Shown in pieces: positions 39,549 to 64,000 of a stretch of 64,000 nucleotides of DNA (positions within the stretch are counted from its first letter, which is position 1; each line of letters opens with the position of its first letter). The stretch spans positions 215,933 through 279,932 of the forward strand of contig JBGAUW010000003.1 in NCBI GenBank assembly GCA_044228435.1, in the 5' to 3' direction. Below the pieces are notes generated by a model, which worked only from the letters and a program-made list of their open reading frames with translations, searched no databases and had not been told where the DNA came from. The stretch comes from Chitinophagales bacterium (GTDB lineage: Bacteria > Bacteroidota > Bacteroidia > Chitinophagales > LD1). A program made the position numbers and the translations under genes.

Positions 39549-39560
39549 GGGTTCGGCAGG

Positions 39561-41087: not shown

Positions 41088-41208
41088 GGCTGCTTTAGGT
41101 AGTATTCTTTAAATATTATCCTAATTACCCGCAGGCAGCCAACGTTTGCCTCAAAAAAAGCGTTTAGTAATAGGCACATTTCAATTTTAGTTAATTTCGC
41201 CATCCTTT

Positions 41209-44200
41209 ATGCATGTAAAAAAAATACTATCAGCCGCTCTAATATTCCTGTCGTTTACAATGGCGCATGCTACCCACATTGTGGGCGGCTATATTTCGTA
41301 TCGTTTTATTTCGGGCACTACCTACGAAATTAAGCTAACCATTTATCGCGATTGCAACAGTACTACGCCGTTTGATGGCACTCCGGGGGCTACCACTTCG
41401 GCTATAGTAGGGCTGTTTGATACCAACGGCAACCTTATTACCACTTACCCGCTTACCGATCCGCTTATTACCAGTATAGATCCGCCCAACGATAACCCCT
41501 GTTTACAGATAACCTCGCCGGCCTGTGTAGAGCAGGGGGTGTATACCGAAACTATTACTCTGCCGTCAGGCACTGCAGGTTATACCCTGGTGCACGAGCG
41601 CTGCTGCCGCAATGGCACTATCACAAATGTTTTCGACCCTGGAAGCGAGGGCGCAGTATACTCGGCTGCTATTCCGCCTACCAATACTTACCAAAATACC
41701 AGCCCGGTGTTTAATAACCTGCCCCCTTTATTTATATGCTTAAACTCTCCTTTGGTATTTAATTACTCAGCTACTGATGCCGATGGCGATGTTTTAACTT
41801 ACAGTCTTTGTACGCCGTATTCGGGGGGGAACACTACGAACCCTGCGCCAGACCCACCTGTTGGCCCACCGTTTAATAATATAAACTGGCAAAGCCCTTA
41901 TTCACTAAATAATTTGTTGGGTGGTACACCTGCATTAGCCATAGATAATACAACCGGTGTTTTAACTGCCAAGCCTAATACCGTAGGGCAGTTTGTATTT
42001 GGCGTATGTGTAAGCGAGTACCGCAATGGCGCATTGCTGGGCACTTACCTGCGCGATTACCAGGTAAACGTAACTGAATGTAATATACCTATAGCCAGCA
42101 TTCCCAGTTTTGCCATTAACCCCAATACCGGCATTGGCACTTACGTTGTAAATTGTACTAACCTCAATATTGATTTTGTAAACGCATCATATAACCCGCC
42201 ACCCTCTTATTACCATTGGGATTTTGGCGTTGCCGGTGCCACTAACGATACTTCTAACCTCACCAATCCATCTTTTACTTACCCCGATAGCGGATCTTAC
42301 CTCGTAACCTTAATTGCTTATAAAACACCAAGCGGCGGACAAACATGCCAGGATACTACCCGGGCTTACGTATATGTATACCCTACCTTTAGCAACGATT
42401 TTACCACCGCCGATGTGTGTAACGATATACCCGCCCGCTTTACCGATGGCACCTTATCTACCGGTGGCAACATTACCGGCTGGCAGTGGAATTTTGGCGA
42501 TGGCACCACCAGCACACAGCAAAGCCCCACCCACCAGTATGGCGCGCCCGGCACATACAATGTAACCCTCATAAGCTCTAACGAAAAAGGCTGTAAGGAT
42601 ACTACCCAAAAAGCTATTAATGTATTGGCTGCACCGGTGGCAAATTTTTCAACCGGCCCTACCTGTATCAATAGCCCTGTTACCTTTACAGTTTCTACCC
42701 CAGGTAACATTGTATCGCAAAACTGGGATTTTGGCGGCGGCAACACCAGCACACAGGCTACGCCATCTTATACTTACACCACGGCCGGCACCTTTCCGGT
42801 AACTTTAATTATTGCCACGCTGGAAGGTTGCGCCGATACCAATACGCAAAACCTTACTATTCATCCCCTGCCGGTCATCAATATTTCTAACGATACTTTA
42901 ATTTGCCCTTTTACATCGGTGCAACTTTTGTCATCGGGCGGTGTAACTTATCAATGGAGCCCTACTACCGGCCTTAATAACCCTAACGGCGCTAACCCGG
43001 TTGCTACACCACCACCGCCAAATGCTATTACTTATACCGTAAACGTTACCGATGCTAACCAGTGCGCTAACCGCGATAGTGTGCGCGTTTCGTTTTACCC
43101 TATACCACAAATTGAGGCAGGGCCCGATACCTCTGTTTGTTTAAACCCCGGCAATTTTCACCCAAGTGTGCAGTTGCAGGCTACCGGTGGTGTAAGCTAC
43201 CAGTGGTCGCCGGCTACAGCTTTAAGCTCCACCACAACATCCAACCCAACTGCCAACCCTACCGTTAATACCACCTACTACGTGCTGGGTACGGATGCCA
43301 ATGGCTGCCGCCTTACCGATTCGCTTACTGTGTTTGTGTTAGACCCTGCCTTAAACGTAATATCAGAAACCTCGCAAACCATTTGCGAACGCGATACCGC
43401 CTACATTACCGTAATTAACCAGGGCGCCAGCAGCTACAGCTGGAACCCAACGCAGTATATTACCGACCCACTGCTTTTAAGCCCCGGCTTTTTTCCGCCC
43501 GATACCACCAACTACATAATAACTATTAGCAATTACTGCTATACTAAAAACGACTCGGTGCTTATTATTGTATGGCCGTTGCCGCAACTCAACTTAAACC
43601 CGCTGGATAGTGTTTGTTTTACCGAAAGCATACAACTACAGGCTAATGGTGCCCAAACTTACCAGTGGGATGCCGACCCTACCTTAAGTGCCACCAACAT
43701 TGCCGACCCTGTTGCCACTCCACCGGTAACTACACGCTACTTTGTAACCGGCACCAGTTCGTTGGGCTGTGTTAACCGCGATAGCACTTTAATACTGGTT
43801 TACTTTCCATCGCTTATACAGGTTACACCGCGCCTGCCTTACGTTTGCTTAGGCGACCCCATACAACTAAACGTAACCGGTGCTTATACATACCAGTGGA
43901 ATGCTGACCCTACTTTATCCAGTCTTACAATAGCTAACCCTATTGCCAACCCTACCGATACTACAACATATTTTGTAACCGCTACCAACATACACGGCTG
44001 CATAACCACCGATTCAGTTACGCTTAATGTGCAGTTTCCGGTTACCGCAACCACCAGCCCTCTGTTCGATGGCTGCCAGGGCAGTCCGGTGCAGTTGCAG
44101 GCTTCAGGTGGCGTTTATTACCTCTGGACTCCCTCGGCAGGACTGAACAATCCTTTCATCAGCAACCCGTTTGCCATGCCCGATAGCACTACTAACTATG

Positions 44201-44775
44201 TAGTTACGGTTAGCAACGATTGCTTTAGCGATAGCGCCATTACACAAGTTATAGTGCACCAGCTGCCATTTGTAGATGCCGGCCCCGATACTTTAATTTG
44301 GCGCGATACGTATGCCGAGTTACAGGGCTACACCGCCGAAACCAACCACTTTTGGAACCCGAGTACCTGGCTGGATGACCCTTACGATTTAAATACGCGC
44401 GCACAACCGCAGCAAACGCAGTACTATGAGTTATTTGCCATAGACCAATACGGCTGCCTTAACATAGACTCTGTATTAATAACTGTAGAGCCATATACCG
44501 TACTGGATATACCTACCGGTTTTTCGCCGGACGGCAACGGCGTAAACGACCTTTTCCGCATAGTGCGTTATTTGAATATTGAAAAGCTGATAGAGTTTTC
44601 GGTATTTAACCGCTGGGGCAACCAGGTGTTTAGCACTACCGATATTACGCAGGGCTGGGATGGCACTTATAAAGGCGAACAGCAACCCCTAAGTGTATAC
44701 ACCTGGCAGGTAATAGCTAATGCTAAAGACGGCACACGCATAGCCAAAAAAGGTAACGTAACGCTGGTAAGATAA
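41209..44775 (+). CDS. 1188-aa PKD/Ig-repeat protein with T9SS type B (gliding motility-associated) C-terminal domain
   Basis: Signal peptide, N-terminal THIVGGYISYRF...IYRDC and several PKD signatures (WDFGVAG, WNFGDGTTSTQQSPTHQY, WDFGGGNTS). Also ~8 repeats of ..LQASGG..YQWSP..GL. and the C-terminus PTGFSPDGNGVNDLF...NRWGNQVF...GWDG. Confidence 0.9.
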   Translation: MHVKKILSAALIFLSFTMAHATHIVGGYISYRFISGTTYEIKLTIYRDCNSTTPFDGTPGATTSAIVGLFDTNGNLITTYPLTDPLITSIDPPNDNPCLQITSPACVEQGVYTETITLPSGTAGYTLVHERCCRNGTITNVFDPGSEGAVYSAAIPPTNTYQNTSPVFNNLPPLFICLNSPLVFNYSATDADGDVLTYSLCTPYSGGNTTNPAPDPPVGPPFNNINWQSPYSLNNLLGGTPALAIDNTTGVLTAKPNTVGQFVFGVCVSEYRNGALLGTYLRDYQVNVTECNIPIASIPSFAINPNTGIGTYVVNCTNLNIDFVNASYNPPPSYYHWDFGVAGATNDTSNLTNPSFTYPDSGSYLVTLIAYKTPSGGQTCQDTTRAYVYVYPTFSNDFTTADVCNDIPARFTDGTLSTGGNITGWQWNFGDGTTSTQQSPTHQYGAPGTYNVTLISSNEKGCKDTTQKAINVLAAPVANFSTGPTCINSPVTFTVSTPGNIVSQNWDFGGGNTSTQATPSYTYTTAGTFPVTLIIATLEGCADTNTQNLTIHPLPVINISNDTLICPFTSVQLLSSGGVTYQWSPTTGLNNPNGANPVATPPPPNAITYTVNVTDANQCANRDSVRVSFYPIPQIEAGPDTSVCLNPGNFHPSVQLQATGGVSYQWSPATALSSTTTSNPTANPTVNTTYYVLGTDANGCRLTDSLTVFVLDPALNVISETSQTICERDTAYITVINQGASSYSWNPTQYITDPLLLSPGFFPPDTTNYIITISNYCYTKNDSVLIIVWPLPQLNLNPLDSVCFTESIQLQANGAQTYQWDADPTLSATNIADPVATPPVTTRYFVTGTSSLGCVNRDSTLILVYFPSLIQVTPRLPYVCLGDPIQLNVTGAYTYQWNADPTLSSLTIANPIANPTDTTTYFVTATNIHGCITTDSVTLNVQFPVTATTSPLFDGCQGSPVQLQASGGVYYLWTPSAGLNNPFISNPFAMPDSTTNYVVTVSNDCFSDSAITQVIVHQLPFVDAGPDTLIWRDTYAELQGYTAETNHFWNPSTWLDDPYDLNTRAQPQQTQYYELFAIDQYGCLNIDSVLITVEPYTVLDIPTGFSPDGNGVNDLFRIVRYLNIEKLIEFSVFNRWGNQVFSTTDITQGWDGTYKGEQQPLSVYTWQVIANAKDGTRIAKKGNVTLVR

Positions 44776-44835
44776 GCTGCGGAATATTTAGGACTGAATG
44801 ATGCAAGTTGCACCTCGAAGTTCTAATGAAACGAA

Positions 44836-44861
44836 AGCCGCGCCTCGCCGGTGGCGCGGCT
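44836..44861. terminator. GC-rich hairpin between convergent genes
   Basis: AGCCGCGCC-tcgccggt-GGCGCGGCT, extendable by CGAAAG/CTTTCG with a bulge. The T-rich tract is only on the minus-strand side (TTTCGTTTCATT). Confidence 0.5.
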
Positions 44862-44896
44862 CCCGACTTTCGCTTGTATCAAAATGCGCCGCCCTA

Positions 44897-46981
44897 TTAC
44901 TTCACAAACTTCCTCACCACCCTTTGCCTCTCATCGCTTAGCTGCAAAAAGTAAATACCGCTGGGCAGGGTGCTAACATCAATATCAAAGTTGGGCCGTG
45001 TAACAACAAAATCGGATATTACAACCATCCCTTGAACCGTCAGAATCTTTGCTGATAAATTGGAGCCATTTTTAATACGACAATATAGTTTTTCTGATGT
45101 GGGATTAGGATATAGGGTGATTTTTGAATTATCATTCAAATCACCAATGCCGGATATTACTATTTCATTGGAAAACGCGCTGCATCCATTTGTATCTATC
45201 ACTTCTACTAAATAAACACCAGCTTGTTCGGGAATATAAAAAGTTGATGTAGCCCCCTGTATCAGCGTATCGTTCAAATACCACTGGCAATTTTCGGCAT
45301 CGTAAACCTTTAGAGTATCTCGGCTTACGCTTACCGAAACGGATGGTTTGGAATATGAATTTATGGTCATTTGACCCGAAGCAGCCGTGCATCCGTTAGC
45401 ATCGGTAATTGTAAGCTGATAGGCACCCGGATAATTCGTTTTAATGCTACTGCTTGTCATTCCGTTGTTCCATAAATAGTTTGAGTAACCCGGCCTTCCG
45501 GATATAGCCACGCTATCGTTTGAACAGATGGATGCCGGGTCACTACTGATTGTTGTAATACCGGTTAAACAAATATGACTGGTATCGGTAAACTTTATTA
45601 TCCAATAATCAGAGGTTCTATTACTTGTATCTCGGTTGGCTTGGGTTTTATATCCATTTATACCAGCACAAGTTGAGTTAGCTATAAGATATCCCCCTTC
45701 GCGTGTTTCCAAGGCATAGCCCTCGACGAATTCATACTCCGAAAAGGTAAATATTGTTTTATCCCATTGTTTTACTCCGTTTAAATCTGTTTTTACAATC
45801 CATGTTTGCTCCAACCCAAGGTTATTCTCTGTTTTATCGCCGCTGGCGTTCGAAAACGAACTGCCCGCAAGCAAATATCCTCCATCGCTTGTTTGTGTCA
45901 GGCTTCCCAATTTTTCTTCCACGTTAAGCCCTCCGTATTTCTTATCCCATATTTTATTACCCGCCGAATCAATCTTCACTATCCAGTAATCTGCCCCTAA
46001 TTGACTATTTAAAGTCGCTGTATCTCCCATAGGCTCAGTTTTATCACCCTCATTGCCCGATTGCGAAATACCGCCCAGTATATAACCGCCGTCCCTTGTT
46101 TGGTGCAGGCAGGAAAGTAAATCTGCACGCAAGCCCCCAAAGCGCTTATCCCACTGCTTATTACCGGCAGAGTCAATTTTAACTATCCAGTAATCTTCCT
46201 CACCACGGCCCGGCTCTGTTACGTTTCCATCAGCCCTTGACTTTGATTCTCCCCCTAATATATATCCGTTATCGGTGGTTTGTTCAAGGCTGTAAAGAAT
46301 ATCCCTGTTAGTGCCCCCAAAGCGTTTATCCCACTCCTTATTTCCAACTGAATCAATTTTTACTACCCAATAGTCTGAAATATCTACCCCGTTCCAATAA
46401 GGTTCGCTTTTATCGCCGTCTGCGGGCGACATTGAAGCTCCGCCCAAGATATATCCCCCATCCCTGGTTTGTTTTAATGAAAGTAAATCATCTCCATATG
46501 TTCCGCCATAGCATTGGTCCCATTGTTTCTGCCCCGCTGAATCGATTTTTACGATCCAATAATCGTAGGTGTAAGAACCAAAAACCGCATCTGTTTTATC
46601 GCCGCTAATACCCGACATAGATGACCCACCTAAAATATAACCCCCATCATTAGTTGCTGCCGATGAAAAAAGGTAATCAGATCTGTATCCGCCAAAACTT
46701 TTATCCCATTGTTTATTACCTACCGAATCGATTTTTATTACCCAATAATCATCCATGCCGCGTGTAGATTCTGTGCGGTCACCACTACTGGAAGACAAAC
46801 TATGGCCGGCCAAAAAATACCCTCCATCTTTTGTTTGCAAAAGCGAAGAGAGTTTATCGTGCCCAAAACCGCCAAAGCGGGCATCCCAGTTTTTTACCAA
46901 TGGCGCTTGCGCGTGCAAACTGCCTAAGCAAGAAAAACAGAGGAGCAGGAATAAACAACACTGCCGGATTTTTTTCTTCAT
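44897..46981 (-). CDS. T9SS type A cargo protein with seven DYW(I/V)VKIDS.GNKQWDK.FGG repeats
   Basis: Signal peptide and seven ~52-aa repeats (beta-propeller-like). Also Ig-like Cys-containing modules (TITDANGC, VIDTNGC) and a type A CTD (LYPNPTSEKLY...GIYFLQLSD). Its start lies 2 nt after the stop of the upstream S8 gene. Confidence 0.8.
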   Translation of the reverse strand: MKKKIRQCCLFLLLCFSCLGSLHAQAPLVKNWDARFGGFGHDKLSSLLQTKDGGYFLAGHSLSSSSGDRTESTRGMDDYWVIKIDSVGNKQWDKSFGGYRSDYLFSSAATNDGGYILGGSSMSGISGDKTDAVFGSYTYDYWIVKIDSAGQKQWDQCYGGTYGDDLLSLKQTRDGGYILGGASMSPADGDKSEPYWNGVDISDYWVVKIDSVGNKEWDKRFGGTNRDILYSLEQTTDNGYILGGESKSRADGNVTEPGRGEEDYWIVKIDSAGNKQWDKRFGGLRADLLSCLHQTRDGGYILGGISQSGNEGDKTEPMGDTATLNSQLGADYWIVKIDSAGNKIWDKKYGGLNVEEKLGSLTQTSDGGYLLAGSSFSNASGDKTENNLGLEQTWIVKTDLNGVKQWDKTIFTFSEYEFVEGYALETREGGYLIANSTCAGINGYKTQANRDTSNRTSDYWIIKFTDTSHICLTGITTISSDPASICSNDSVAISGRPGYSNYLWNNGMTSSSIKTNYPGAYQLTITDANGCTAASGQMTINSYSKPSVSVSVSRDTLKVYDAENCQWYLNDTLIQGATSTFYIPEQAGVYLVEVIDTNGCSAFSNEIVISGIGDLNDNSKITLYPNPTSEKLYCRIKNGSNLSAKILTVQGMVVISDFVVTRPNFDIDVSTLPSGIYFLQLSDERQRVVRKFVK

Positions 46982-46983
46982 TG

Positions 46984-49900
46984 CTACATTTTTATCACTT
47001 TTACCGTTGCCTTGTATTTGGCGGTTTGTAGCCTGTAAAAATACATTCCCTGCGTTAACTCTTTAATAGAATGAGTTAGTTTTAACTTATTATCAGTAAC
47101 CATTCCGCTGTATACATCGGCTACTTTGCGGCCGGTTATATCAAATAAGCCGATAGTAACATGCTGCGGCGAATTAAAATCGGCTTCGATATAATTATAG
47201 GTAGACGTAAGCGTAGGAAATATTTTAAGGCTGCCGCTTTCGGGCACCTCTTTAACCGAGGTTACCAAAGTAGTATCTTCTATTAATACCGAAATGCTAA
47301 GATTGGCGTAATTTAATGAATAAACACTGTCTCCGGGGTACCAGGCCACAAAATTATTGTTGGTGTCTTTTAGTGCATAGTAATAACCGGCAAGGTAAGC
47401 ATCGCCAAATAAATTCCAGGCTACAGGTATAACATATTCCAGCGAGGATATCACATTGTCTTGATCGGGCGGGAGTAGCAATGTGGAAAGTGATGCATCT
47501 GTCCAATAGTCAACAATGATCTCGTTAGGGTTTAAATTATATCTTACAACGTGCTCGGCAAAATAAACATCGGCATGGTAATTTCCTTTGTTTATCCATA
47601 TACCATTTACATTCTGCACCGTTTCGGCTAAATAAACCGGCACGTTGGAGCTTTCCTTTGTATTGTATTTCGAGCCACCCTGATCGCTGAAATAATGGCG
47701 GATAGACCTTTCGGGTTTGTGCACGTAATAGAGGGCGGCTCCCGCATTTAAAAGCCCATGACCGGAAGAATCGTCATATCCTGCTGCACCCTTATCGGTA
47801 GCCGTTACTTCAATTATATGTTCTACATCTTCCGGCGTCAGGTTGCTTAAGCTATATGTTGTATCGTTATAGTAGCTGAGCAGCAAGGCAGCAACACCGG
47901 CCACATGGGGTGCGGCGGCAGAACTGCCATTGAAGGCCTTATAGCCCCCGCCGGTTTGGGTGGTGGTTACAATGTTTATCGAGCCCGGCGCTATTACGTC
48001 CATATCTTTGCCAAATGAGGTATTGAAAGCTCCCAGCACAGGGTTATTGCCCGTATTATTTACCACCGCCGTTTTGCCATTGTTGCCCGAAGCTCCAACG
48101 CTTAATACCCAGCCATCGTAATAGCAGGCGGGGTATTCTACTAATGTATCGCCTTCATTACCACGGCTGGCTACAAAAACACTGGCGCAGCGGTTAGCCA
48201 CATGTACAGCATCGCGCAACAATTCAATTACAGTGTCTTTAAATATACTTGGCGACTTAAACGGTCCTATCCCCCAACTGTTACTCATAATATTTAGTTT
48301 ATCCCCGGCGGAATTTAGGCTAAGCACTGCATTGTCTACAATGGCGCCATGAATATAAGATACAAAGGTAAGGGAATCGTATGGGAAAATTCGGTAGCCA
48401 TACATAGAAACTCCGGGGTTACCGCTTTGCATATCACCACCCGCAATTCCGGCGATGCCCTTGCTATTATTACGGTAGGCGCCAATTATGCCGCCGCATT
48501 TTGTGCCGTGGTCGCCGCGCCCAAAAGGAGAAGCAAAAATAGATACACCACTTCTTGTATAGTCTTTACCACTCTTTACTTTTATGCCTTGGCCACCCCC
48601 AAGGTCGGGGTGCATATAATCCAGCCCATCATCTAATACACCCACTCTTATATCTTCGCGGCCATTTACCAAATCCCAGGCAGGTTCAATATTGATACTT
48701 GCGCTATCGAAAGGGGAGATATAGTGAACTGAAATTTGCTGGGCAGCATACAGTGAATCATTCGCACCGGCCGTCTTTTTGCCTGCATAATCTGGATGCG
48801 CGTAAATGACGTAAGGAAATAGGTTCGATACTGCGTCTGCGAAATTAATCTCATTTACATCACTAGCGCTATAATCTAATGCGAAAGCAGCCCACAAGGC
48901 TGGTATTTTCACCTCTGTGCCTAACCGGCTTAATAACAGTGTATCATTGGGCGTTATTGATGAAAGTCTTACGAAGGTAGCCTCGTCTAAAGAAAAAGGT
49001 GCTATCGAATCCAATACGTGAAATGCAATGGAATCAAGGATTTGTGCCGGCGAAAAAAACTGACGTTCATTGTCCATGAGCAAATCTGTATTGATATTGG
49101 CTTCGTTGAATCGGATAAGAATCCTCTTTTTCATGAATAAGGGATTCGAAGCAGTATCGTACGTTACCTCTATTTTCTTTTCCAACTCCTTATACATCGC
49201 CGCAAAATACAAGGTGTCCGTTGGTCCCTCACTGCTGCCAATTACTAAGGTTTCTTCGCCGCCTGCAAAAAAGCCGGTAGCCCTGTCGTTGGTGCCTGCA
49301 CCGCGGTTGTAGGTTTTTAGCCAGCGCATATTGCCGCCTGTATCGTAGCTAATGGTTACCATATCAAAATCGGCCCCGTTATACTGGCGGCCGGCTACAT
49401 ACACATTGCCCTGCACCGGGCCGCCGCTCCAATCTCCTATTACCGCTTTGGCGCTTGTTTCCCAGGCAGGGTTGGGGTTGCTTAGCCTGCGTTCCCAATC
49501 GGTAGTGCCGCTGGTATCGTATTGGGCCGTTAGTATGTCCTTGCCGCCTGTAGCATTGTTGGCCGTACCGGTTATTACCAGTTTACCGTTAAAAAAGTTG
49601 TAGTCTAAATCTTCAGCCACATCGGGCAGCACACTATCGCCTAAAACTTTTACCCACACCTGGTGGCAGGCGGTATCGTATTTTATCAGTTTCAAATCGG
49701 TATTGCTGCCGCTTACCTGGCTGGTGCCCAATACATACAGGTTATCTTCATTATCCTTAATAATATCTATCGGGCGGCTAAAAGCGCCGCTGCCGTTGGC
49801 TGCGCGGTTTTGGTCGTGCAGGGCACCGGTAGAAGGCGAAAAAGTAGCCGTGGCAAAATCCCAACTGCCAAAACCACTACCCGAAAAGCCGGTAATGCTG

Positions 49901-50523
49901 ATATAAGTGCCAATTACAAGTCCTACGCCCCCATCGTAATAACCTGTGCTATCGTAGGTGCTTTTCCATTGCATGGTGCCGCTGCTGTTATACTTAATCA
50001 GGTTCATGCCATAATCTAAGCTGCCGGTTTGTTCAGTGCCCACCACATATACGTTACCCGCAGCATCTACCCGCACTTTGGCAGGGGCAGCATAGCCGCT
50101 GTAAGATGGGGTGTAGGTGGACCGCCACACTACCGAGCCATCGCTTTCCTTTATCTTCATGGTATTAAAGGTGCAAACGTTGGCACTATCAAGGGTAACG
50201 CCGGTGGCATAAATGTAGTTTTTATAATAGTAAATGTCGGTGCCCCAATCGCGGCCTGTAGTTATATCGTAGGTGGTGTCCCACAGCAGGTTGCCGGTAT
50301 TATCCAGCTTGGTTATTTGATAGTTTTCGAGGTTACTACCTATTTGCTGGCTTACCATTACATACAGGTTGCCGCTGGCATCTTTATCAAAGCTTAAAAG
50401 GCTATTGCCCTGGTAAGGCCCACCTATATCAAATACCTCTTGCTGGTTTACTAAGGTTTGGGTTTGGGCAGAAGTGATTAAAAAGAAAATACAAAGGGCT
50501 ACTAAAGTGCCGATGTTCTTCAT
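46984..50523 (-). CDS. S8 family (subtilisin-like) serine peptidase with N-terminal beta-propeller-like repeats and T9SS type A CTD
   Basis: Catalytic-triad-like motifs: VGVLDDGLD (Asp), GDHGTKCGGIIG (His) and FNGSSAAAPHVAGVAALL (Ser). CTD: IFPTLTSTYNYIE...GMYFYRLQT. I prefer the ATG at 50523 (MKNIGTLVALCIFF). Confidence 0.85.
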   Translation of the reverse strand: MKNIGTLVALCIFFLITSAQTQTLVNQQEVFDIGGPYQGNSLLSFDKDASGNLYVMVSQQIGSNLENYQITKLDNTGNLLWDTTYDITTGRDWGTDIYYYKNYIYATGVTLDSANVCTFNTMKIKESDGSVVWRSTYTPSYSGYAAPAKVRVDAAGNVYVVGTEQTGSLDYGMNLIKYNSSGTMQWKSTYDSTGYYDGGVGLVIGTYISITGFSGSGFGSWDFATATFSPSTGALHDQNRAANGSGAFSRPIDIIKDNEDNLYVLGTSQVSGSNTDLKLIKYDTACHQVWVKVLGDSVLPDVAEDLDYNFFNGKLVITGTANNATGGKDILTAQYDTSGTTDWERRLSNPNPAWETSAKAVIGDWSGGPVQGNVYVAGRQYNGADFDMVTISYDTGGNMRWLKTYNRGAGTNDRATGFFAGGEETLVIGSSEGPTDTLYFAAMYKELEKKIEVTYDTASNPLFMKKRILIRFNEANINTDLLMDNERQFFSPAQILDSIAFHVLDSIAPFSLDEATFVRLSSITPNDTLLLSRLGTEVKIPALWAAFALDYSASDVNEINFADAVSNLFPYVIYAHPDYAGKKTAGANDSLYAAQQISVHYISPFDSASINIEPAWDLVNGREDIRVGVLDDGLDYMHPDLGGGQGIKVKSGKDYTRSGVSIFASPFGRGDHGTKCGGIIGAYRNNSKGIAGIAGGDMQSGNPGVSMYGYRIFPYDSLTFVSYIHGAIVDNAVLSLNSAGDKLNIMSNSWGIGPFKSPSIFKDTVIELLRDAVHVANRCASVFVASRGNEGDTLVEYPACYYDGWVLSVGASGNNGKTAVVNNTGNNPVLGAFNTSFGKDMDVIAPGSINIVTTTQTGGGYKAFNGSSAAAPHVAGVAALLLSYYNDTTYSLSNLTPEDVEHIIEVTATDKGAAGYDDSSGHGLLNAGAALYYVHKPERSIRHYFSDQGGSKYNTKESSNVPVYLAETVQNVNGIWINKGNYHADVYFAEHVVRYNLNPNEIIVDYWTDASLSTLLLPPDQDNVISSLEYVIPVAWNLFGDAYLAGYYYALKDTNNNFVAWYPGDSVYSLNYANLSISVLIEDTTLVTSVKEVPESGSLKIFPTLTSTYNYIEADFNSPQHVTIGLFDITGRKVADVYSGMVTDNKLKLTHSIKELTQGMYFYRLQTAKYKATVKVIKM

Positions 50524-50918
50524 AGGTGGTGGGGTTTGGTAAACTAAATGTAGCTTATAAAGCATCAAAAACGACCCCTCATATATCATTAAATTGTTAA
50601 GCTTTGAATTGTGTGGGTTTTACAGGATAACCGGTAGGTTTGAGTGGGGATTGGGTAAAAAATAAATTTTGCGGTAGCCATACAAAGGAAATAAGGAGTG
50701 ACAATACTCTTTCAAGTAAGCATTATTTCATATCTTTGTATGACAGTAATGTTCTTTGATTTATTGGTTCTTTTATAAACACAAAAGCAGGTTTAAACTC
50801 ATTTTCTAGCGCTTGCCTTGTCCTAAATTAGGTTGACAAAAAAATGTTACGCCTTTACACACCGGTTATGCATTACTTATTTGATTACTAGTAGCTTAAA
50901 CCTAACGGTTAAAAAAAA

Positions 50919-53477: not shown

Positions 53478-54365
53478 TCAGGCCGCTACCGTGGCGGGCA
53501 CTTTCTTTTTAGCCTGCACATGCTGCCGCGAGGTTTTGCAAACCTTATCCCAAATAGACGATACCTCGCCGAAGTTGGCGTTTACATCGCTATGGTGTAT
53601 GTTGTGCCAGGCGCTGCTGTTTAAACCAACGCGGGGAAGCACACGCTCCAGCCAGTTAAACGTAACCCCGCAGTGCAGGTAAAGATTTAAAAACACAAAG
53701 CCCACAATGGCCGAAAAATAAAGCGGCGCAAAATGCTTGGCCGGCGGAAAACAAATAAGCAGCAGGGGCCAAAAGGTAAGCAGGGTTTCCAACGGCCCTA
53801 CGGCAAAGCCCGAAAAGGGGGTAGGGTCGCGAAAGGTATGGTGGTGCTTATGAAACGGAAAAAACATACGGGTATGCAGCAACCGGTGTTTCCAGTAGGT
53901 CATAGCATCTACTGCTATTATGCCCAGGTACATTTGCAGCACTACCATCCACCAGCTAAGGCCCATTTCTTCTACCGTCCACGCAAGCCCGGTGGGTAGG
54001 CCCATGCGATACATACCTACGGGCCAGGCCGCCATACACGATACTACAAACATAGCCCGTGTAGTGCCAAATGCCTCCATAGCAATAGGCGGCGTTTTTT
54101 TTCGCTGCCCCTGTATACGGGTGCCTTTGCGCTCCGAAAACCAATACATAAGTGTGCTGAACAGCAATAAAGGAATGGTAATAACCGCAAAAATGCGCCA
54201 CAGGCTATCGTAATAAATACGGGCGCTGGGGTGCAATAAACCCGATAGAAAGAAGGCTATAACAATAAAACCATCTACAAATGTAGCTACCTTATCGGGG
54301 CGAAAAACATGCTGCTTTACAAGGGTGGCCATGGTGGTGGGTTGATTTGAATCAAAGGTATACAC
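53478..54365 (-). CDS. fatty acid hydroxylase / sterol desaturase superfamily membrane protein (ERG3/ERG25-like)
   Basis: Three His boxes (HRLLH, HKHHH, HNIHH) and four or more hydrophobic helices. An alternative ATG start lies at 54332. Confidence 0.75.
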   Translation of the reverse strand: MYTFDSNQPTTMATLVKQHVFRPDKVATFVDGFIVIAFFLSGLLHPSARIYYDSLWRIFAVITIPLLLFSTLMYWFSERKGTRIQGQRKKTPPIAMEAFGTTRAMFVVSCMAAWPVGMYRMGLPTGLAWTVEEMGLSWWMVVLQMYLGIIAVDAMTYWKHRLLHTRMFFPFHKHHHTFRDPTPFSGFAVGPLETLLTFWPLLLICFPPAKHFAPLYFSAIVGFVFLNLYLHCGVTFNWLERVLPRVGLNSSAWHNIHHSDVNANFGEVSSIWDKVCKTSRQHVQAKKKVPATVAA

Positions 54366-56968: not shown

Positions 56969-59170
56969 TTATCCCTTCAAATACCTGCCCAGCGCCCAAA
57001 TGGGGAACACATTGCGGTAGCTGGTGTAGCTTATCATACAGTTATGGTTAAAAACGCCGCTTATGCTTTCTTGTGGCCAATCGCCGGTGGGTTGCTGGCG
57101 GCTGATGAGTAAGCGCATACCTTTTTCGATGGCAGTTTTTATAGCCTGTTGTTTAGCACCGGTTGTTAGTTTCTCAATCTCCATTAGGCTTAGCAAAGCC
57201 CAACTGGTATTAACCACCTGGCTGGTGGGGTGCTCTATGTATTCTTTCTCAATACAGCTTTCAAAGCTTTCGCCCCAGCCACCATCTTCTTTTTGTTTCG
57301 ATAAAAGAAACGTGCTTGTACGTTCGATTGCTGCATTTATTTCCGCACTCTGTATTCCGGTTTCCGCCTTAGTAAGCGCTTCAATGGCAAACCAGGTTCC
57401 ATAGGTAAAACAAACTGCCCACGAACCATACCAAGAGCCATCTTCCCGCTGCAAGTTCTTTTTAAATTCTGCCAGGCTTTGTATACAGGCCGATGAACAT
57501 TCGGTGTAGGAGTAATCTACCATTATGTTTCCAAATACTTCCGAGGGGTTCAGTAACTCTATCCATTCCGGCGCACGGGTCAGTTCATACGATGCCCAAC
57601 CGCCGCCACTGTTTTGCATAGAAAGTAAAAGGTCGGCCGCCTTCTTTAATCTTTCATCAGAAATTTGTTTCTCCTGTATCGTATCTTCTCTCTTGTGCCT
57701 TTCCTCTTGTTTCTGTTGTCTTGTTTCTTGCTTCTTGTTTCTTGGCTCTACTAACAACGCCGTCTTCAATCCCTCTGCCGTGCAATCGGTAATGGGCCAA
57801 CCGTGGTCGGCAGTAGAGAAAGGCCAGCCGCCTACGGAGTCGTGCCGGAAATACTTTTTGTGGTCGCGCACTTCTTCTTTCACTTGGCTATGGTCAATGA
57901 AATTGAAAGCCTTACTTACTGTTTCAGGAAAATACTTTTCCATACCACCTTCTAAAATAGCCTGGGTGGCAAACACGGTATCCCATAATTGCGAGCCGTT
58001 ATAGCCCTGCATTTTCATACCATCTTCAGCTACCCAAAGGTAGTCGGCCCAACGCTCTGCGTGCTTTTTAAACCGCACTGAATCTTTACCGTAGGCATGG
58101 TAAATAGCAATAGAGTTTATAACCTGATTAACCGGGCCTATATCAATATAATTGGTGTGTTCATCTTCGGCATTAATGTAATCCAGGCAAAAGTCGACCG
58201 CCTTTTTGCGCCAGCTTTTTACTTTAAACTTTTCGTAAACGTTTAAAGCGCGGTTCATCAGTTTTAAAGCTGCCGACTGAGGGTAGTATAAATCGGGCTC
58301 TGCACAACTTTCGCGCGCCTTTACCCAATCTACCGATGCATAATCTTGTGTATATAACTCCTTGCGCAGTTCGGCAATCAGGTTGTTTTGTCGCCCTATC
58401 ACTTTATGTCCATAGCAATAAGCCATGGGCAGGTAAACCATGCGCGCATGGCACCAATACCGCCCCGGGTGAAAGGGCAGCCACTGCGGCAAAGTCCACA
58501 TTTCGGGAAACAGAGAGTTATTGCCTTCCCACTCATAAACGCCCAACACACTCAGATAAAATTTGCCCCAGCCAGGCAAGCCCGTAGCCCCGCCATTTGC
58601 CAGTATCCACTGGCGGGCATTGATAATTTGAGGGGTATCTTTTTCCATACCCAGCAGCCGCAACGCCACATATTGCAGTACGGTGCCGAACATGGTGCTT
58701 TTGCCTTCCAGGTGCAAGCCCCAGCCCCCATCGGGGTTCTGGTGGTTTAAAAAATATTGTTTCATTAAAGCCTGATGGCTTTCGGGAAAGGGGGTTTCGG
58801 TTACGTAGCTGGCTATAACCAGCCCCGGCAACAAAAACATAGGGCCGCCGTAGTCGCCCGGCCAATGGCCTTCGGGGGTTTGCAGGGTGCTGTAAAAGTG
58901 GATGCCTTTATAAGCCGCCTGAAAAGCCTTGTGCGATATTTCGCCCTCCAAATTATCGGGGTAAGGAATGTGCAGAGGATTTAAATTGGTTAGCAAACCA
59001 ACCTGCTGGGCCCTATAAACACGGTCTGCGCTGTTCGGATTTTCGGATTTGTTGTAAACAAAATCTTCAAAAACCTTACCGTGGTTGTTTCTCTCGCCAA
59101 CATAGCTCCATCGCTGCCTTCCCGCATCTGTATTGAGTTTCCAGCTGTTCCACCCCTGTTTATTTAGCAT
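56969..59170 (-). CDS. oxidosqualene cyclase (cycloartenol-synthase-like terpene cyclase/mutase)
   Basis: 733-aa ORF with the catalytic DCTAE motif (WPITDCTAEGLK), not the DxDD of squalene-hopene cyclases. Also YWCHARMVYLPM, MQGYNGSQLWDT and QW-type repeats (DGSWYGSW, DGGWGES, GDWPQE). Confidence 0.9.
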   Translation of the reverse strand: MLNKQGWNSWKLNTDAGRQRWSYVGERNNHGKVFEDFVYNKSENPNSADRVYRAQQVGLLTNLNPLHIPYPDNLEGEISHKAFQAAYKGIHFYSTLQTPEGHWPGDYGGPMFLLPGLVIASYVTETPFPESHQALMKQYFLNHQNPDGGWGLHLEGKSTMFGTVLQYVALRLLGMEKDTPQIINARQWILANGGATGLPGWGKFYLSVLGVYEWEGNNSLFPEMWTLPQWLPFHPGRYWCHARMVYLPMAYCYGHKVIGRQNNLIAELRKELYTQDYASVDWVKARESCAEPDLYYPQSAALKLMNRALNVYEKFKVKSWRKKAVDFCLDYINAEDEHTNYIDIGPVNQVINSIAIYHAYGKDSVRFKKHAERWADYLWVAEDGMKMQGYNGSQLWDTVFATQAILEGGMEKYFPETVSKAFNFIDHSQVKEEVRDHKKYFRHDSVGGWPFSTADHGWPITDCTAEGLKTALLVEPRNKKQETRQQKQEERHKREDTIQEKQISDERLKKAADLLLSMQNSGGGWASYELTRAPEWIELLNPSEVFGNIMVDYSYTECSSACIQSLAEFKKNLQREDGSWYGSWAVCFTYGTWFAIEALTKAETGIQSAEINAAIERTSTFLLSKQKEDGGWGESFESCIEKEYIEHPTSQVVNTSWALLSLMEIEKLTTGAKQQAIKTAIEKGMRLLISRQQPTGDWPQESISGVFNHNCMISYTSYRNVFPIWALGRYLKG

Positions 59171-59310: not shown

Positions 59311-60510
59311 ATGGTAATTGACTTACTGAAATCAGCCAATAAGCCATCAGAACTGATGGCGATACTTAAAATTAAATTCGGCGACCTATCGATTAAAGCA
59401 AATGATGAGCCACTGGATATACTGGCACGCAAACTTGGCGACCGCGCCTTTTGCTATGCCGCCCTTAACCAGGTTTCGCGCTCGTTTGCCGTGGTTATTC
59501 AGCAGCTGCCTTATGAACTGCGCGACCCTGTTTGTGTATTTTACCTCGTGCTGCGCGGGCTCGACTCGGTAGAAGATGATATGACTTACCCTGCCGAACA
59601 GCGCTTACCCCTGCTGCGCAACTTCCACGAAAAGTGCAACCAAAAGGGTTGTAAAATAGAAGGCGTGGGCGACTCAGCCGACTACCGCGTACTGCTGGCC
59701 AACTTTGACAAGGTGATAAACGTTCACCAATCGCTAAAACCCGAATACCGCGATGTAATAACCAACATTTGCGAAAAGATGGGCAACGGTATGGCCGACT
59801 ACGCCAGCCGCAAGGTGGTTACCCTTACCGACTACGATGATTACTGTTATTATGTGGCCGGTTTAGTGGGTATTGGGCTTTCGAGCCTGTTTTACGCCTC
59901 GGGGCTGGAAAGCCACCAATTGCAGGATAGCTTTGAATTAGCCAACTCTATGGGCCTGTTGTTGCAAAAAACAAACATCAGCCGCGATTACTACGAAGAT
60001 TTGAACCTGGGCCGCTCATTTTGGCCGAAAGAGATTTGGGGTAAATATACCGAGCGACTGGATGAGCTACAGAAAAACCCCACCTCGCCAGAGTCGCTGG
60101 GCTGCATAAATGAGCTGGTAACCGATGCCCTGCAACACGTTAGCAACTGCATATTATACCTGAACATGATACGCGACCCGCAGGTGTTCCGGTTTTGTGC
60201 CATACCGCAGGTAATGGCTATGGCTACCCTGGCAAAAATTTACAATAACCCGGATGTGTTTACCGAGGTGGTAAAAATACGCAAGGGCCTTGCCGCTAAA
60301 CTAATGGTAGAAACCAACAGCATGGAAGTGGTAAACAAGGTGATGAACAAGTATGTGGAACAAATAAGAAGCAAACTGAATACGGAAGACCCGAACTACC
60401 TGCTGACTAAAAAACGCTTGAACCGCATTACCGAATCGCTGGATGATGTGAAATATAACAAGTGCGAAATAGTGCCCGATAGAGCGATAGAGGAATCGGT
60501 ATTGTTTTAA
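59311..60510 (+). CDS. squalene synthase (farnesyl-diphosphate farnesyltransferase, eukaryote-like)
   Basis: Has the two Asp-rich motifs (LDSVEDD, RDYYEDL), YCYYVAGLVGIGLS and FCAIPQVMAMATL. Confidence 0.9.
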   Translation: MVIDLLKSANKPSELMAILKIKFGDLSIKANDEPLDILARKLGDRAFCYAALNQVSRSFAVVIQQLPYELRDPVCVFYLVLRGLDSVEDDMTYPAEQRLPLLRNFHEKCNQKGCKIEGVGDSADYRVLLANFDKVINVHQSLKPEYRDVITNICEKMGNGMADYASRKVVTLTDYDDYCYYVAGLVGIGLSSLFYASGLESHQLQDSFELANSMGLLLQKTNISRDYYEDLNLGRSFWPKEIWGKYTERLDELQKNPTSPESLGCINELVTDALQHVSNCILYLNMIRDPQVFRFCAIPQVMAMATLAKIYNNPDVFTEVVKIRKGLAAKLMVETNSMEVVNKVMNKYVEQIRSKLNTEDPNYLLTKKRLNRITESLDDVKYNKCEIVPDRAIEESVLF

Positions 60511-60519
60511 AGGCGAACC

Positions 60520-61911
60520 ATGAGCACAAGCGAATACGACATATGCATTATTGGCGCCGGAGTAGCCGGTGGCACCCTCGCTGCTTACCTGGGCAGGCAT
60601 GGACTGCGGGTAGCAGTGATTGAAAAAAGCCTGCGTGAGCAAGACCGGATAGTAGGCGAATTGCTACAGCCTGGTGGCGTAATGAAGTTACGCGAAATGC
60701 AGCTGGAGCATTTGCTGGAAGATTTTGACGCCCAACCGGTAACCGGTTATGCGCTTTTTTTAAACGGACAAAACTTTAGGGTTAACTACCCCGAGGTGGA
60801 AAATGGCCGTGGTTTTAGGAACGGAAAGTTTGTGCAGAAAATAAGAAGTGAGCTTTCATCCCTGGCATCGGTGAAAGTGATTGAAGGAAGCGCCACCGGT
60901 TTTGTTGAAGAAGGGGATATAGTAAAGGGCGTAACTTATACCGATGCCGAAACCAAAGAACCGAAACAAATAAGTGCTGCACTTACAGTTGTGTGCGATG
61001 GTATGTTCTCGGGGTTTAGGGAGCAACTGGCTATGAACCAGAAAAAAATAAGCAGCTACTTTTTAGGCATGCTTTTAAAAGATTGTGTGCTACCCTATGC
61101 TAACCACGGCCATGTGATAATTGCCGACCCATCGCCTTGTTTGGTTTACCCGGTATCAAGCACCGAAACCAGAGTGCTGATTGATTTTCCGGGTAGTGAG
61201 CCGCCAAAAAAGGGAGAAGAACTAACCGCTTACTTACGCGATACTATTGGCACACAAATGCCCGAAGAAATTAAGCCCTCCTTTTATGCGGCAGTAGAGG
61301 AAGGCAAGTTTAAGGTAATGCCCAATCATATTTTTCCGGCAAAGCCAAGGCTTAAACAAGGGGCGGTTATGCTTGGCGATTCGCTGAACATGCGGCACCC
61401 GCTAACCGGCGGAGGCATGACAGTAGCTTTTACCGATGTGCATGCCTTAGGCAGTAAATTAATACAGGCCCTATTACAACCCGGCACGCCACGCACTCCA
61501 GAAGAAAAACAGCAGCTGATTTCGGCCTGCGTAAAAGAGTTTTACGAAAACCGGCACAAACAAGTGGCCACAGTAAATATTTTAGCCGATGCGCTTTACG
61601 GGGTAATGAGCAGTAAAGATTTAAAGCAAGCCTGCTACGATTACCTGGCCCGCGGTGGTAATTACTCTGCCGAGCCGATTTCTATTTTATCGGCTGTATC
61701 GCGCGATGTAACTTTGCTTATGCGCCACTTTTTTGCCGTGGCCTTGTATGGCGTTAAAAATCTTTTAGGCTCTAAACCAAACAAGCAAGGCGCCATTCGT
61801 TCGTATAAAATGATGAAGGCTGCTGTAAAAATTATTGCTCCCCTCATGGCAAATGAAAAGCCTAACCGGGTAACACGCTCGGCGCAGAGTGTGGCAAGAG
61901 CGATGTTTTGA
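60520..61911 (+). CDS. squalene monooxygenase (squalene epoxidase)
   Basis: FAD-binding motif (DICIIGAGVAGGTLAAYL...VAVIEK), DRIVGELLQPGG and GDSLNMRHPLTGGGMTVA. Its start lies 9 nt after the squalene synthase stop. Confidence 0.9.
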   Translation: MSTSEYDICIIGAGVAGGTLAAYLGRHGLRVAVIEKSLREQDRIVGELLQPGGVMKLREMQLEHLLEDFDAQPVTGYALFLNGQNFRVNYPEVENGRGFRNGKFVQKIRSELSSLASVKVIEGSATGFVEEGDIVKGVTYTDAETKEPKQISAALTVVCDGMFSGFREQLAMNQKKISSYFLGMLLKDCVLPYANHGHVIIADPSPCLVYPVSSTETRVLIDFPGSEPPKKGEELTAYLRDTIGTQMPEEIKPSFYAAVEEGKFKVMPNHIFPAKPRLKQGAVMLGDSLNMRHPLTGGGMTVAFTDVHALGSKLIQALLQPGTPRTPEEKQQLISACVKEFYENRHKQVATVNILADALYGVMSSKDLKQACYDYLARGGNYSAEPISILSAVSRDVTLLMRHFFAVALYGVKNLLGSKPNKQGAIRSYKMMKAAVKIIAPLMANEKPNRVTRSAQSVARAMF

Positions 61912-62766: not shown

Positions 62767-64000
62767 TTAAGCGAAGAAGCTTGCAACCCACTGTATAAAC
62801 GAAGTTGTTTCGTGGTTGTTAACGGCTATAAGCGGAGCGATAGTTAAACCTACCAGCGATGAAAGCTTGATTAAGATGTTCATAGATGGACCCGAAGTAT
62901 CTTTGAAAGGATCGCCTACAGTATCACCTACCACAGCAGCTTTGTGCGGTTCAGATTTTTTGTAGAAGGTTTCTTTCTTTCCGTTTACTTCAATCTCTAC
63001 ACCTTTCTCAAATGATTTTTTAGCGTTATCCCATGCACCACCGGCATTGTTTTGGAAGATAGCCCAAAGCACACCGCTAACGGTTACACCGGCCATGTAA
63101 GCACCTAATGCCTCAGCACCCATACCTACACCCACTAAAATAGGAGTAACGATAGTAATAACACCCGGCGCTAACATTTCGCGCAAAGCGGCTTTGGTAG
63201 AAATTTCAACACACTTTTCGTAATCCGGTTTACCGGTTCCTTCTAATATGCCCGGTATTTCGCGGAACTGGCGGCGAACTTCGTTCACCATATCCATAGC
63301 CGCTTTACCCACGCTGTTCATAGCAAGGGCCGAGAAAACTACCGGAATCATACCACCCACAAACAAGGCAGCCAATACCTTCGCATCGAAGATATTGATA
63401 CCATGAATACCGGTAAGTGTTACATAAGCTGCAAAAAGCGCAAGGGCTGTTAATGCCGCCGATGCAATAGCAAAACCTTTTCCTACCGCTGCAGTTGTGT
63501 TACCTACTGAATCTAATACGTCGGTTTTTTCGCGAACCTCTTTAGGCAATTCACTCATTTCGGCAATACCACCTGCGTTATCGGCAATAGGGCCAAAGGC
63601 GTCAACTGCTAATTGCATAGCCGTAGTAGCCATCATAGCCGAAGCGGCTATACCCACACCGTAGAAACCAGCCAATGCATAAGCGCCCCAAATAGCGGCT
63701 GCAAAAATGATAACCGGGAATGCTGTAGAAAGCATACCGGTTCCTAAACCTGCAATAATGTTAGTTGCTGCACCGGTAGCCGATTTTTGAACGATATCAC
63801 GAACCGGTTTGCCACCAAGCCCTGTATAGTACTCCGTAATGTAAGAGATTAAGTAACCTACTACCATACCAATACAAACAGCGAAGAATACATTTAAAGA
63901 TGAAGTGGTAATTACGCTGAATTCGCCTGCGTTAAAAGCACTCATTTGTATAGTTTCCGGCAACATCAATTTAATTAAGCCGAAAGAAGCAGCTAAAGCC
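62767..64000 (-). CDS. hppA: membrane-bound (H+/Na+)-translocating pyrophosphatase, C-terminal ~410 aa (5' end beyond window)
   Basis: Motifs [27 protein letters not shown] and [11 protein letters not shown]. The frame stays open to position 64000 (..[15 protein letters not shown]..). Confidence 0.9.

Follow-up and report, generated by a model that had tools for sequence, protein, structure and literature searches.

The 64,000-nucleotide stretch of DNA analysed here (the window) comes from a Chitinophagales (Bacteroidota) bacterium and harbors a putative protosterol module of three genes. The genes for squalene synthase (SQS) and squalene epoxidase (SQE) lie on the plus strand and the gene for an oxidosqualene cyclase (OSC) is oriented divergently on the minus strand (Table 1). 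The squalene synthase is full-length and aligns without gaps to its counterparts in L002 and L004 at 90% identity, while the squalene epoxidase is colinear with homologues at 12 related loci, and both genes are fully intact. The divergent SQE-SQS/OSC order is kept at at least 12 related loci (L002, L004, L008, L010-L012, L017, L019, L027, L030, L033 and L034), and the cluster is near-universal in the clade among loci with enough flanking sequence. By its gene content the module corresponds to a bacterial protosterol gene cluster in which the substrate-supplying genes adjoin the cyclase gene; the epoxidase product, 2,3-oxidosqualene, would be the substrate of the cyclase. Genes dedicated to later modification of the sterol were not recognised in the window. 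An FA_hydroxylase gene (53478..54365) is at most a tentative candidate for a downstream sterol enzyme; it is syntenic in the closest relatives only, does not occur near the cyclase gene in 31 loci of other genomes, and neither NCBIfam nor PDB gave a match for it. A promoter and terminator scan of the cyclase locus, as well as tRNA and Rfam scans, gave nothing beyond chance. The gene content of the window also includes T9SS, CHU_C and SprB genes, which points to the Chitinophagales.

Table 1. Features of the cyclase gene and of the adjoining squalene genes; positions are those of the window.
Feature	Position	Strand	Details
Oxidosqualene cyclase gene, cycloartenol-synthase type by residues	56969..59170	-	733 aa, stop codon included; ORF list
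Junction of private in-frame 66-nt (22-aa) deletion, between Leu573 and Gln574	57452..57453	-	DNA alignment with 92%-identical L001
Lys/Gln/Glu-rich insertion, about residues 476-503, loop after DCTAE helix	57662..57745	-	Alignment
DCTAE motif, residues 462-466, catalytic Asp462 (human D455)	57773..57787	-	Alignment
Ile460 codon (AtCAS1 I481, human LSS V453)	57791..57793	-	aat, reverse complement ATT
His456 codon (AtCAS1 H477, human LSS C449)	57803..57805	-	gtg, reverse complement CAC
Tyr390 codon (AtCAS1 Y410, human LSS T381)	58001..58003	-	ata, reverse complement TAT
Squalene synthase gene, 399 aa, divergent from cyclase gene	59311..60510	+	Pfam SQS_PSY; TIGR01559 equivalog, 460.6 (cut-off 286.75)
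Squalene epoxidase (monooxygenase) gene, 463 aa	60520..61911	+	Pfam SE PF08491, E 5.5e-87

The cyclase belongs to the oxidosqualene cyclases, as indicated by its two barrel domains and its similarity to solved OSC structures. It matches the Pfam families SQHop_cyclase_N (PF13249) and SQHop_cyclase_C (PF13243) as well as TIGR01787 (667.7 bits, cut-off 322.7). The best solved-structure match in a HMMER search is the human enzyme 1W6K (E 2.5e-201), and Foldseek aligned the AF2 model to 1W6K/1W6J with TM scores of 0.84-0.85. The motif ITDCTAEG, which includes D462 and C463, is of the OSC type and not the DxDD motif of SHC. The canonical active-site positions W239, H241, Y528, C558, W584 and N708 correspond to W230, H232, Y503, C533, W581 and N697 of human lanosterol synthase (1W6K/1W6J); these residues, together with human D455 and C456, are all conserved. 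With TIGR03463 (2,3-oxidosqualene cyclase, cut-off 851 bits) the window protein scores 666.3 bits, the intact P0002 712.8, cycloartenol synthase CAS1 of Arabidopsis (AtCAS1) 643.3 and P0114 656.8. Since AtCAS1 and intact relatives also stay under the cut-off, this threshold does not discriminate here and was dropped as a membership criterion. The gene has been under long-term purifying selection, with a dN/dS of 0.086 relative to L001. The Lys/Gln/Glu-rich insertion is common to the three closest relatives only and is predicted to be disordered (pLDDT about 50 in the models of the window protein and P0002).

An earlier note, made from the DNA letters only, had assigned Tyr390, His456 and Ile460 of the cyclase, together with the catalytic Asp462, to the product-determining positions Y410, H477 and I481 of AtCAS1, had described the local sequence as nearly identical to the plant motif and had set it against that of lanosterol synthases. 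All of this holds on closer analysis. In the translated protein, MKMQGYNGSQLWDT begins at residue 385, which places the tyrosine at 390, and FSTADHGWPITDCTAEGLK begins at residue 451, which places the histidine at 456, the isoleucine at 460 and the aspartate at 462. The codons in the raw DNA agree (Table 1; for Asp462 atc at 57785-57787, reverse complement GAT), and the span 57785..58003 runs exactly from the D462 codon through the Y390 codon. The HMMER alignment with 1W6K pairs Y390/T381, H456/C449, I460/V453 and D462/D455. In a MAFFT alignment Y410, H477, I481 and D483 of AtCAS1 (database copy P0123), which lie within MKMQGYNGSQL and FSTADHGWPISDCTAEG, share columns with Y390, H456, I460 and D462. 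Thus, aligned with both AtCAS1 and human LSS, the residues fall at the same three positions. Local identity to AtCAS1 around the triad amounts to 14/14 and 18/19 residues, whereas human lanosterol synthase has QGTNGSQ and STLDCGWIVSDCTAE at these sites. The mark of lanosterol synthases is T381/C,Q449/V453 and that of cycloartenol synthases Y381/H449/I453 (PMC4919349). The first (Thr, Cys or Gln, and Val at human positions 381, 449 and 453) is absent from the window cyclase; the second (Tyr/His/Ile at AtCAS1 410/477/481) is present by both HMMER and MAFFT.

The three enzymes would take farnesyl diphosphate through squalene and 2,3-oxidosqualene to a tetracyclic protosterol. In the proposed mechanism Asp462 of the DCTAE motif would protonate the epoxide, and the protosteryl cation would rearrange to a C-9 cation before Tyr390, His456 and Ile460 come into play. 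The environment provided by these residues, as by their AtCAS1 equivalents, would promote deprotonation at C-19 with closure of the 9β,19-cyclopropane ring. The outcome would be cycloartenol and not lanosterol, which requires C-8/C-9 deprotonation; a different deprotonation outcome is indeed expected from the contrast between human T381/C449/V453 and Y/H/I in the window protein. With no gene for further sterol modification recognised in the window, cycloartenol would stay unmodified, as an end product like that of Fluviicola taffensis.

The Tyr/His/Ile triad is kept in 119 of the 123 sequences aligned with MAFFT, so the match is not one of chance. The full triad occurs in 118/121 aligned homologues, among them a Fluviicola genome, and in every Bacteroidota locus aligned, the Fluviicola MAG (L024) included. 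By these alignments the triad is standard throughout the Bacteroidota clade and no distinguishing mark of this gene, which makes the cycloartenol prediction well supported yet unsurprising. The relatives found in a scan of GTDB species are all MAGs, with identities to the window cyclase of at most 74%. The Fluviicola MAG, which served as proxy for the characterised F. taffensis enzyme, is 48% identical (Fluviicola-type enzymes about 45-48%), a value equalled or exceeded by AtCAS1 (48%) and human LSS (49%), so the assignment as a cycloartenol synthase is based on few residues and not on close homology. A rough NJ tree places the window cyclase within a Chitinophagales clade and has the Fluviicola-type enzymes branch basally among the bacterial ones; the enzyme of the Fluviicola MAG has the same triad but lies outside the Chitinophagales group.

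Cyclases of the cycloartenol type have been documented before in bacteria, Bacteroidota among them, and the field treats the residue rule as textbook knowledge. F. taffensis (Fluta_3214) is a cultured member of the Bacteroidetes shown to produce cycloartenol (PMC4919349). The resurrected ancestor of the group II bacterial OSCs is a cycloartenol producer as well (PMC8237579), and two expressed metagenomic bacterial OSCs also yield this product (PMC12324236). For Eudoraea, the source of the other characterised Bacteroidota cyclase, PMC12324236 describes arborane triterpenols. The remark in the earlier note that cycloartenol had been reported for a few Bacteroidota cyclases thus has to be narrowed, as the literature searched documents one cultured Bacteroidota producer. 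The F. taffensis cyclase and the window cyclase come from the same phylum, both lack recognised downstream sterol genes, and the unmodified cycloartenol made by the former is predicted for the latter. No characterised enzyme from the present Chitinophagales clade was found in the literature searched; the window cyclase would be one more predicted cycloartenol-type member, from a clade without a characterised representative.

Arabidopsis CAS1 (EC 5.4.99.8) resembles the window protein in fold family, in the Y/H/I triad and in the catalytic Asp of DCTAE. Overall identity is 48%, as given above, and the window gene is bacterial and clustered with SQS and SQE genes. A further difference is that AtCAS1 keeps a QW-repeat helix, KAVKFIESIQAADGSW, which the window protein lacks, the latter having in addition the Lys/Gln/Glu-rich loop insertion. 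The missing segment, FSDYRKQEIERALSKGIGFILSQ, spans an outer barrel helix and the leading two-thirds of a QW motif, the third counted from the C-terminus. Its counterpart in human lanosterol synthase is the helix of about residues 549-570, and in the P0002 model it forms helix 575-591 (pLDDT 97-98). A QW motif scan found this third repeat cut to a 'QREDGSW' tail and the other QW repeats intact. The segment measures 22-23 residues in 122/122 other aligned cyclases and 1 residue in the window protein, which is thus the only one of 123 sequences without the full set of QW repeats and outer barrel helices. Two sister species with the same synteny do not have the deletion, and neither the deletion allele nor a contig of the same species was present in the JGI metagenomes scanned. 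The junction shows no microhomology, which leaves a slipped-strand deletion without specific support.

Owing to the deletion, scores against the family HMMs fall by about 50 bits, and the TIGR03463 match breaks into two parts. The missing helix lies directly upstream of the loop and helix that carry Trp584, the equivalent of the human active-site residue W581. In the AF2 model of the window protein, residues 573-584 have pLDDT below 50 and residues 581-590 a pLDDT of 53; the model is otherwise confident (mean pLDDT 88.6, TM 0.84 to 1W6K). With one outer α/α-barrel helix lost next to the Trp584 loop, the enzyme may be destabilised or inactive, and the uniqueness of the deletion among 123 sequences together with the pLDDT drop suggests that folding or activity of the protein may be impaired. 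Further signs of gene decay were not found in the cyclase gene, the frame being intact and free of stops and frameshifts. Private amino acid changes number 16 in the window lineage and 8 in L001, a difference that is not significant; the 16 substitutions are mostly conservative, none affects an invariant column, and every catalytic or invariant residue is retained. Accelerated decay of the cyclase, to which tblastn identities had pointed (PdxA 99%, OSC 91%), was ruled out, since both genes are about 92% identical in DNA, with dN/dS values of 0.086 (OSC) and 0.016 (PdxA).

A product can be read from the residues only if the enzyme folds and is active, which is in doubt for this copy. The cycloartenol prediction of the earlier note therefore stands as far as the class of the cyclase is concerned; the loss of 22 residues of helix, which had been overlooked, calls into question whether the enzyme is folded and active. 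The allele could be non-functional or the protein severely destabilised, either by a recent loss-of-function deletion or because the deletion is an assembly or consensus artefact, in which case squalene or oxidosqualene would be made and no cycloartenol. We regard this as a serious possibility, though somewhat short of an even chance. The uniqueness of the deletion and its absence from the syntenic sister species speak for it, as do the removal of a complete, confidently modelled helix, the reduced HMM scores and the larger number of private changes. The same holds for the low model confidence over the conserved GSWYGSW segment, which contains the W581 equivalent. These points are countered by the open frame, the retained catalytic residues and conservative, statistically unremarkable substitutions, by the intact SQS and SQE genes next to it and by the confident remainder of the model; moreover, the 16-residue linker that is left has sufficient length to bridge the barrel. 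In work from the Hoshino laboratory, squalene-hopene cyclase with point mutations in its QW motifs reportedly lost mainly thermostability and kept activity, which also argues against a dead allele.

An active enzyme might also form mainly lanosterol, parkeol or a mixture in spite of its CAS-type triad, since second-sphere residues can shift the specificity of oxidosqualene cyclases. Within the same clade of bacteria, the close relatives P0114 and P0118 have changed to Y/N/V at the triad sites, so that specificity appears evolutionarily labile in this clade. We nevertheless consider such a product improbable, because all three positions of the window protein are CAS-type and are embedded in the near-identical stretches shared with AtCAS1. 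In mutagenesis by the Matsuda laboratory, AtCAS1 reportedly required changes at H477 or I481 to form lanosterol or parkeol, which again speaks against these products here. In bacteria position 453 alone was reported to track the product, from a small sample, but I453 and cycloartenol showed complete correlation across the bacteria tested, F. taffensis included (PMC4919349). Less probable still is that the cyclase forms eudoraenol, isoarborinol or another non-sterol triterpenol. Such a product is suggested by the enzyme of Eudoraea adriatica, a Bacteroidota OSC homologue that is likewise encoded beside a squalene epoxidase gene and that, according to PMC12324236 (citing Banta 2017), makes arborane triterpenols. 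The diagnostic substitutions W230S, H232Y and N697Y (human numbering) of this eudoraenol/arborinol synthase are absent from the window protein, which keeps W239, H241 and N708. Of the substitutions reportedly sufficient for eudoraenol formation these three could be mapped, while the change at position 521 maps poorly, human residue 521 being Phe in the alignment.

In the reading we prefer, the gene encodes a cyclase of the cycloartenol-synthase type and carries a helix deletion private to it. We hold this reading with considerable confidence, which extends to the classification and not to the activity of the allele. The intact orthologues in the sister species very probably make cycloartenol; for the window allele itself, continued cycloartenol formation is a nearly balanced matter that leans slightly to the negative. 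It seems rather unlikely that the allele represents a natural, still-active OSC that works without one outer barrel helix and a QW repeat. If it did, a supposedly structural barrel element would be shown to be dispensable, and the deletion allele constitutes a small natural experiment on the dispensability of a QW repeat. In practical terms the deletion warns against calling products from motifs without also checking protein integrity.

Bacterial sterol synthesis bears on the reading of sterane biomarkers and on models for the origin of the eukaryotic sterol pathway. The near-universal triad and the SQS-SQE/OSC cluster suggest that many uncultured Chitinophagales are able to make cycloartenol, and uncultured Chitinophagales of soil and freshwater may be a large, overlooked bacterial source of the unmodified compound.

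Translation of the predicted oxidosqualene cyclase (OSC) places MKMQGYNGSQLWDT at residue 385 and FSTADHGWPITDCTAEGLK at residue 451, and direct reading of the codons showed that the residue numbers Y390, H456, I460 and D462, as well as their coordinates, are exact in the earlier note, which had claimed a cycloartenol synthase triad for this protein. In a phmmer search against all PDB chains the top match was human lanosterol synthase (LSS, 1W6K, E 2.5e-201), which serves as a structural template but differs in the triad: Y390, H456 and I460 are aligned with T381, C449 and V453, and D462 with D455. As plant reference we used the Arabidopsis database entry P0123, which was retrieved with an AtCAS1 sequence as query, is 100% identical to it across 99% of the query, and which we take to be AtCAS1. 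It carries Y410, H477, I481 and D483 within MKMQGYNGSQL and FSTADHGWPISDCTAEG, a numbering that agrees with the literature, for example a reference title naming 'cycloartenol synthase residue His477'. In two MAFFT alignments, one with 124 and one with 43 sequences, the window residues share their columns with Y/H/I/D of AtCAS1 and T/C/V/D of the human enzyme, and 14 of 14 and 18 of 19 surrounding residues are identical to AtCAS1. The plant residues named in the earlier note, the near-identity to the plant motif and the contrast to lanosterol synthases were thus all recovered, and formal alignment with AtCAS1 and human LSS places no other residues at the triad. According to the published rule, T381, C or Q449 and V453 (human numbering) denote lanosterol synthases and Y381/H449/I453 cycloartenol synthases, and in the bacteria tested the product tracked position 453 completely (PMC4919349).

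Other product classes can be compared by residues as well. The catalytic motif is DCTAE, whereas squalene-hopene cyclases have DxDD, and Y528, C558 and W584 correspond to human Y503, C533 and W581, all of which are kept. A cyclase of Eudoraea, also of the Bacteroidota, forms arborane triterpenols, for which W230S, H232Y and N697Y together with a change at position 521 are reported to be sufficient (PMC12324236). The window protein has unsubstituted W239, H241 and N708 at human positions 230, 232 and 697, which sets it apart from the Eudoraea arborinol synthase and excludes that type. Since these residues and DCTAE are retained, the protein is, as judged from its sequence, a sterol-type OSC with cycloartenol-type residues, and cycloartenol is the predicted product. 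Domains, catalytic motif and fold of the family are present; the full QW/helix complement is not.

The Tyr/His/Ile triad is not unusual in the clade. Besides the window protein and AtCAS1, it occurs in 118 of 121 homologues that were taken from the first search and aligned, in every recovered Bacteroidota locus, including a Fluviicola MAG, and in one Verrucomicrobiaceae MAG. Overall identity does not discriminate, with 48% to both AtCAS1, which shares the triad, and the Fluviicola enzyme, and 49% to human LSS. In a rough neighbor-joining tree the window protein lies deep within a Chitinophagales group, with plants and human outside the bacterial clade. The three exceptions have Y/N/V and are nested inside this clade; the position of two of them, P0114 and P0118 (source names Methylomonas/Methylococcaceae), suggests a natural His-to-Asn and Ile-to-Val switch within an otherwise Y/H/I lineage. 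The same changes convert cycloartenol synthase to lanosterol synthase in mutagenesis. For group II bacterial cyclases, ancestral reconstruction infers a cycloartenol-producing ancestor (PMC8237579), and expressed bacterial metagenomic cyclases gave cycloartenol (PMC12324236). With the triad common in the clade and such precedents published, the prediction of cycloartenol is sound, yet expected.

The genes for squalene synthase (SQS) and squalene epoxidase (SQE) are divergent from the cyclase gene, full length and colinear with their homologues. The SQE-SQS/OSC arrangement recurs in at least 12 related loci, and the Logan contigs of the two closest relatives, L033 and L034, share a wider synteny of SQE, SQS, OSC, PdxA, PepA, FA_hydroxylase, RsmA and 2-hydroxyacid dehydrogenase. 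Conservation of the cluster is uneven: compared to loci L002 and L004, SQS is 90% identical, while SQE (74-75%) and the cyclase (67-73%) are much more diverged. Cyclase matches in species-representative genomes were found only in MAGs, labelled Chitinophaga, Chitinophagales, Chitinophagaceae, Bacteroidetes etc., at 74% identity or less. Within the window, no sterol genes of the CYP51, C-14 reductase, SdmA/B or methyltransferase type were recognised. Similarly, Fluviicola taffensis, which shares the phylum but belongs to a distant clade, has cycloartenol as its sole sterol and no downstream genes (PMC4919349). Three genes from the cyclase, an FA_hydroxylase protein (PF04116, 295 aa) is encoded, with no match in NCBIfam or PDB. 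Its gene is syntenic in L033 and L034 and was not found near the cyclase in more distant loci. Sterol C-4 methyl oxidase (ERG25) and the C-5 desaturase ERG3 belong to this superfamily, and the 295-aa protein could be a sterol-modifying enzyme or unrelated.

Coordinates of features in the window
Feature	Position	Strand	Remark
Collagen-like ORF, 540 aa	15764..17386	-	six matched PF01391 triple-helix repeat stretches, E 4e-40
Large surface-protein run	22081..50589		Por_Secre_tail, CHU_C, PKD, Ig_7, SprB
2040-aa protein	33426..39548		within surface-protein run
1201-aa subtilase	46984..50589		within surface-protein run
FA_hydroxylase	53478..54365	-	
OSC ORF, 733 aa	56969..59170	-	contains 57785..58003, the span of the earlier note
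Lys/Gln/Glu-rich insertion	57662..57745	-	residues about 476-503
Asp462 codon	57785-57787	-	read from DNA
Ile460 codon	57791-57793	-	read from DNA
His456 codon	57803-57805	-	read from DNA
Tyr390 codon	58001-58003	-	read from DNA
SQS gene	59311..60510	+	TIGR01559 equivalog, 460.6 bits vs cut-off 286.75
SQE gene	60520..61911	+	PF08491, E 5.5e-87
EGF/teneurin-like ORF, 233 aa	61998..62699		adjoins pyrophosphatase ORF
H+-translocating pyrophosphatase ORF	62767..63969	-	profile positions 296-644 of 645 only

The remainder of the window is typical of Bacteroidota, with T9SS sorting domains, CHU_C and SprB repeats. The very large proteins of the run at 22081..50589, predicted to be secreted or located at the surface and with T9SS sorting signals among them, fit a gliding host within the Bacteroidota, and the 540-aa ORF is an unusual bacterial collagen-like protein. 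For the pyrophosphatase, the true start probably lies upstream of the TTG given in the ORF list, or else the N-terminal part is encoded in another frame or outside the segment assembled by the ORF caller. Neither tRNA nor tmRNA genes occur in the 64-kb window, and no Rfam family reaches the gathering threshold.

The earlier note read the residues correctly but overlooked that 22 residues are missing between Leu573 and Gln574, a segment that none of the 122 other sequences in the alignment lacks, AtCAS1, human LSS and the 755-aa protein of a sister species (P0121, 94% identical) among them. Compared to the related locus L001, the deletion is a single clean in-frame gap of 66 nt (junction 57453/57452) and the sole indel in the cyclase gene, the loci being otherwise ca. 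92% identical throughout. In P0121 the lost peptide reads FSDYRKQEIERALSKGIGFILSQ and makes up the front of a canonical QW repeat (KGIGFILSQQREDGSW), of which QREDGSW alone remains. In the AlphaFold2 model of an intact relative (P0002) the segment forms helix 575-591 (block pLDDT 97-98), whereas in the window model residues 573-584 have pLDDT below 50 (blocks 571-580 and 581-590, 41 and 53). This stretch holds the invariant G578, W580, G582 and W584, the last being equivalent to human active-site W581. The rest of the model is confident (mean pLDDT 88.6; TM 0.84-0.85 to 1W6K/1W6J). Family HMM scores are ca. 50 bits below those of P0002 and the TIGR03463 match is broken into two. Separately, an insertion of ca. 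18 extra residues (RNKKQETRQQKQEERHKREDTIQEKQ) follows the DCTAE helix and is shared only with the three closest relatives P0121, P0002 and P0122; its pLDDT is ca. 50 in both models, so that it probably forms a disordered loop at the surface.

The deletion is either recent or tolerated, but it may also be an assembly artefact. The junction has no microhomology, and searches of metagenomes for the deletion allele, and separately for contigs of the same species, gave no match. NCBI lists an identical sequence of 733 aa, so the protein as deposited carries the deletion. The reading frame is free of stops and frameshifts, and the invariant columns of the alignment are all retained. Relative to L001, dN/dS is 0.086 for the cyclase and 0.016 for the neighbouring PdxA. 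With P0002 and P0122 as outgroups, 16 private substitutions were counted in the window lineage and 8 in L001, a difference that is not significant; they are mostly conservative and none falls at an invariant site. Beyond the deletion, nothing points to decay of the cyclase gene.

Following established OSC chemistry, SQS would convert two farnesyl diphosphates to squalene, which SQE would epoxidise. The epoxide would be protonated by Asp462, activated by Cys463 and Cys558, and chair-boat-chair cyclisation would give the protosteryl cation, with 1,2-shifts carrying the charge to C-9. The Tyr/His/Ile environment would then direct proton loss from C-19 and 9β,19-cyclopropane closure to cycloartenol, whereas Thr/Cys/Val in lanosterol synthase would favour C-8/C-9 deprotonation. 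Given the loss of an outer barrel helix beside the Trp584 loop, the chance that the window protein itself is active seems slightly less than even; for its intact orthologues, a function as cycloartenol synthases is very probable. The main addition of this analysis is the clade-wide survey of the triad, together with the caveat that the window allele is structurally truncated.
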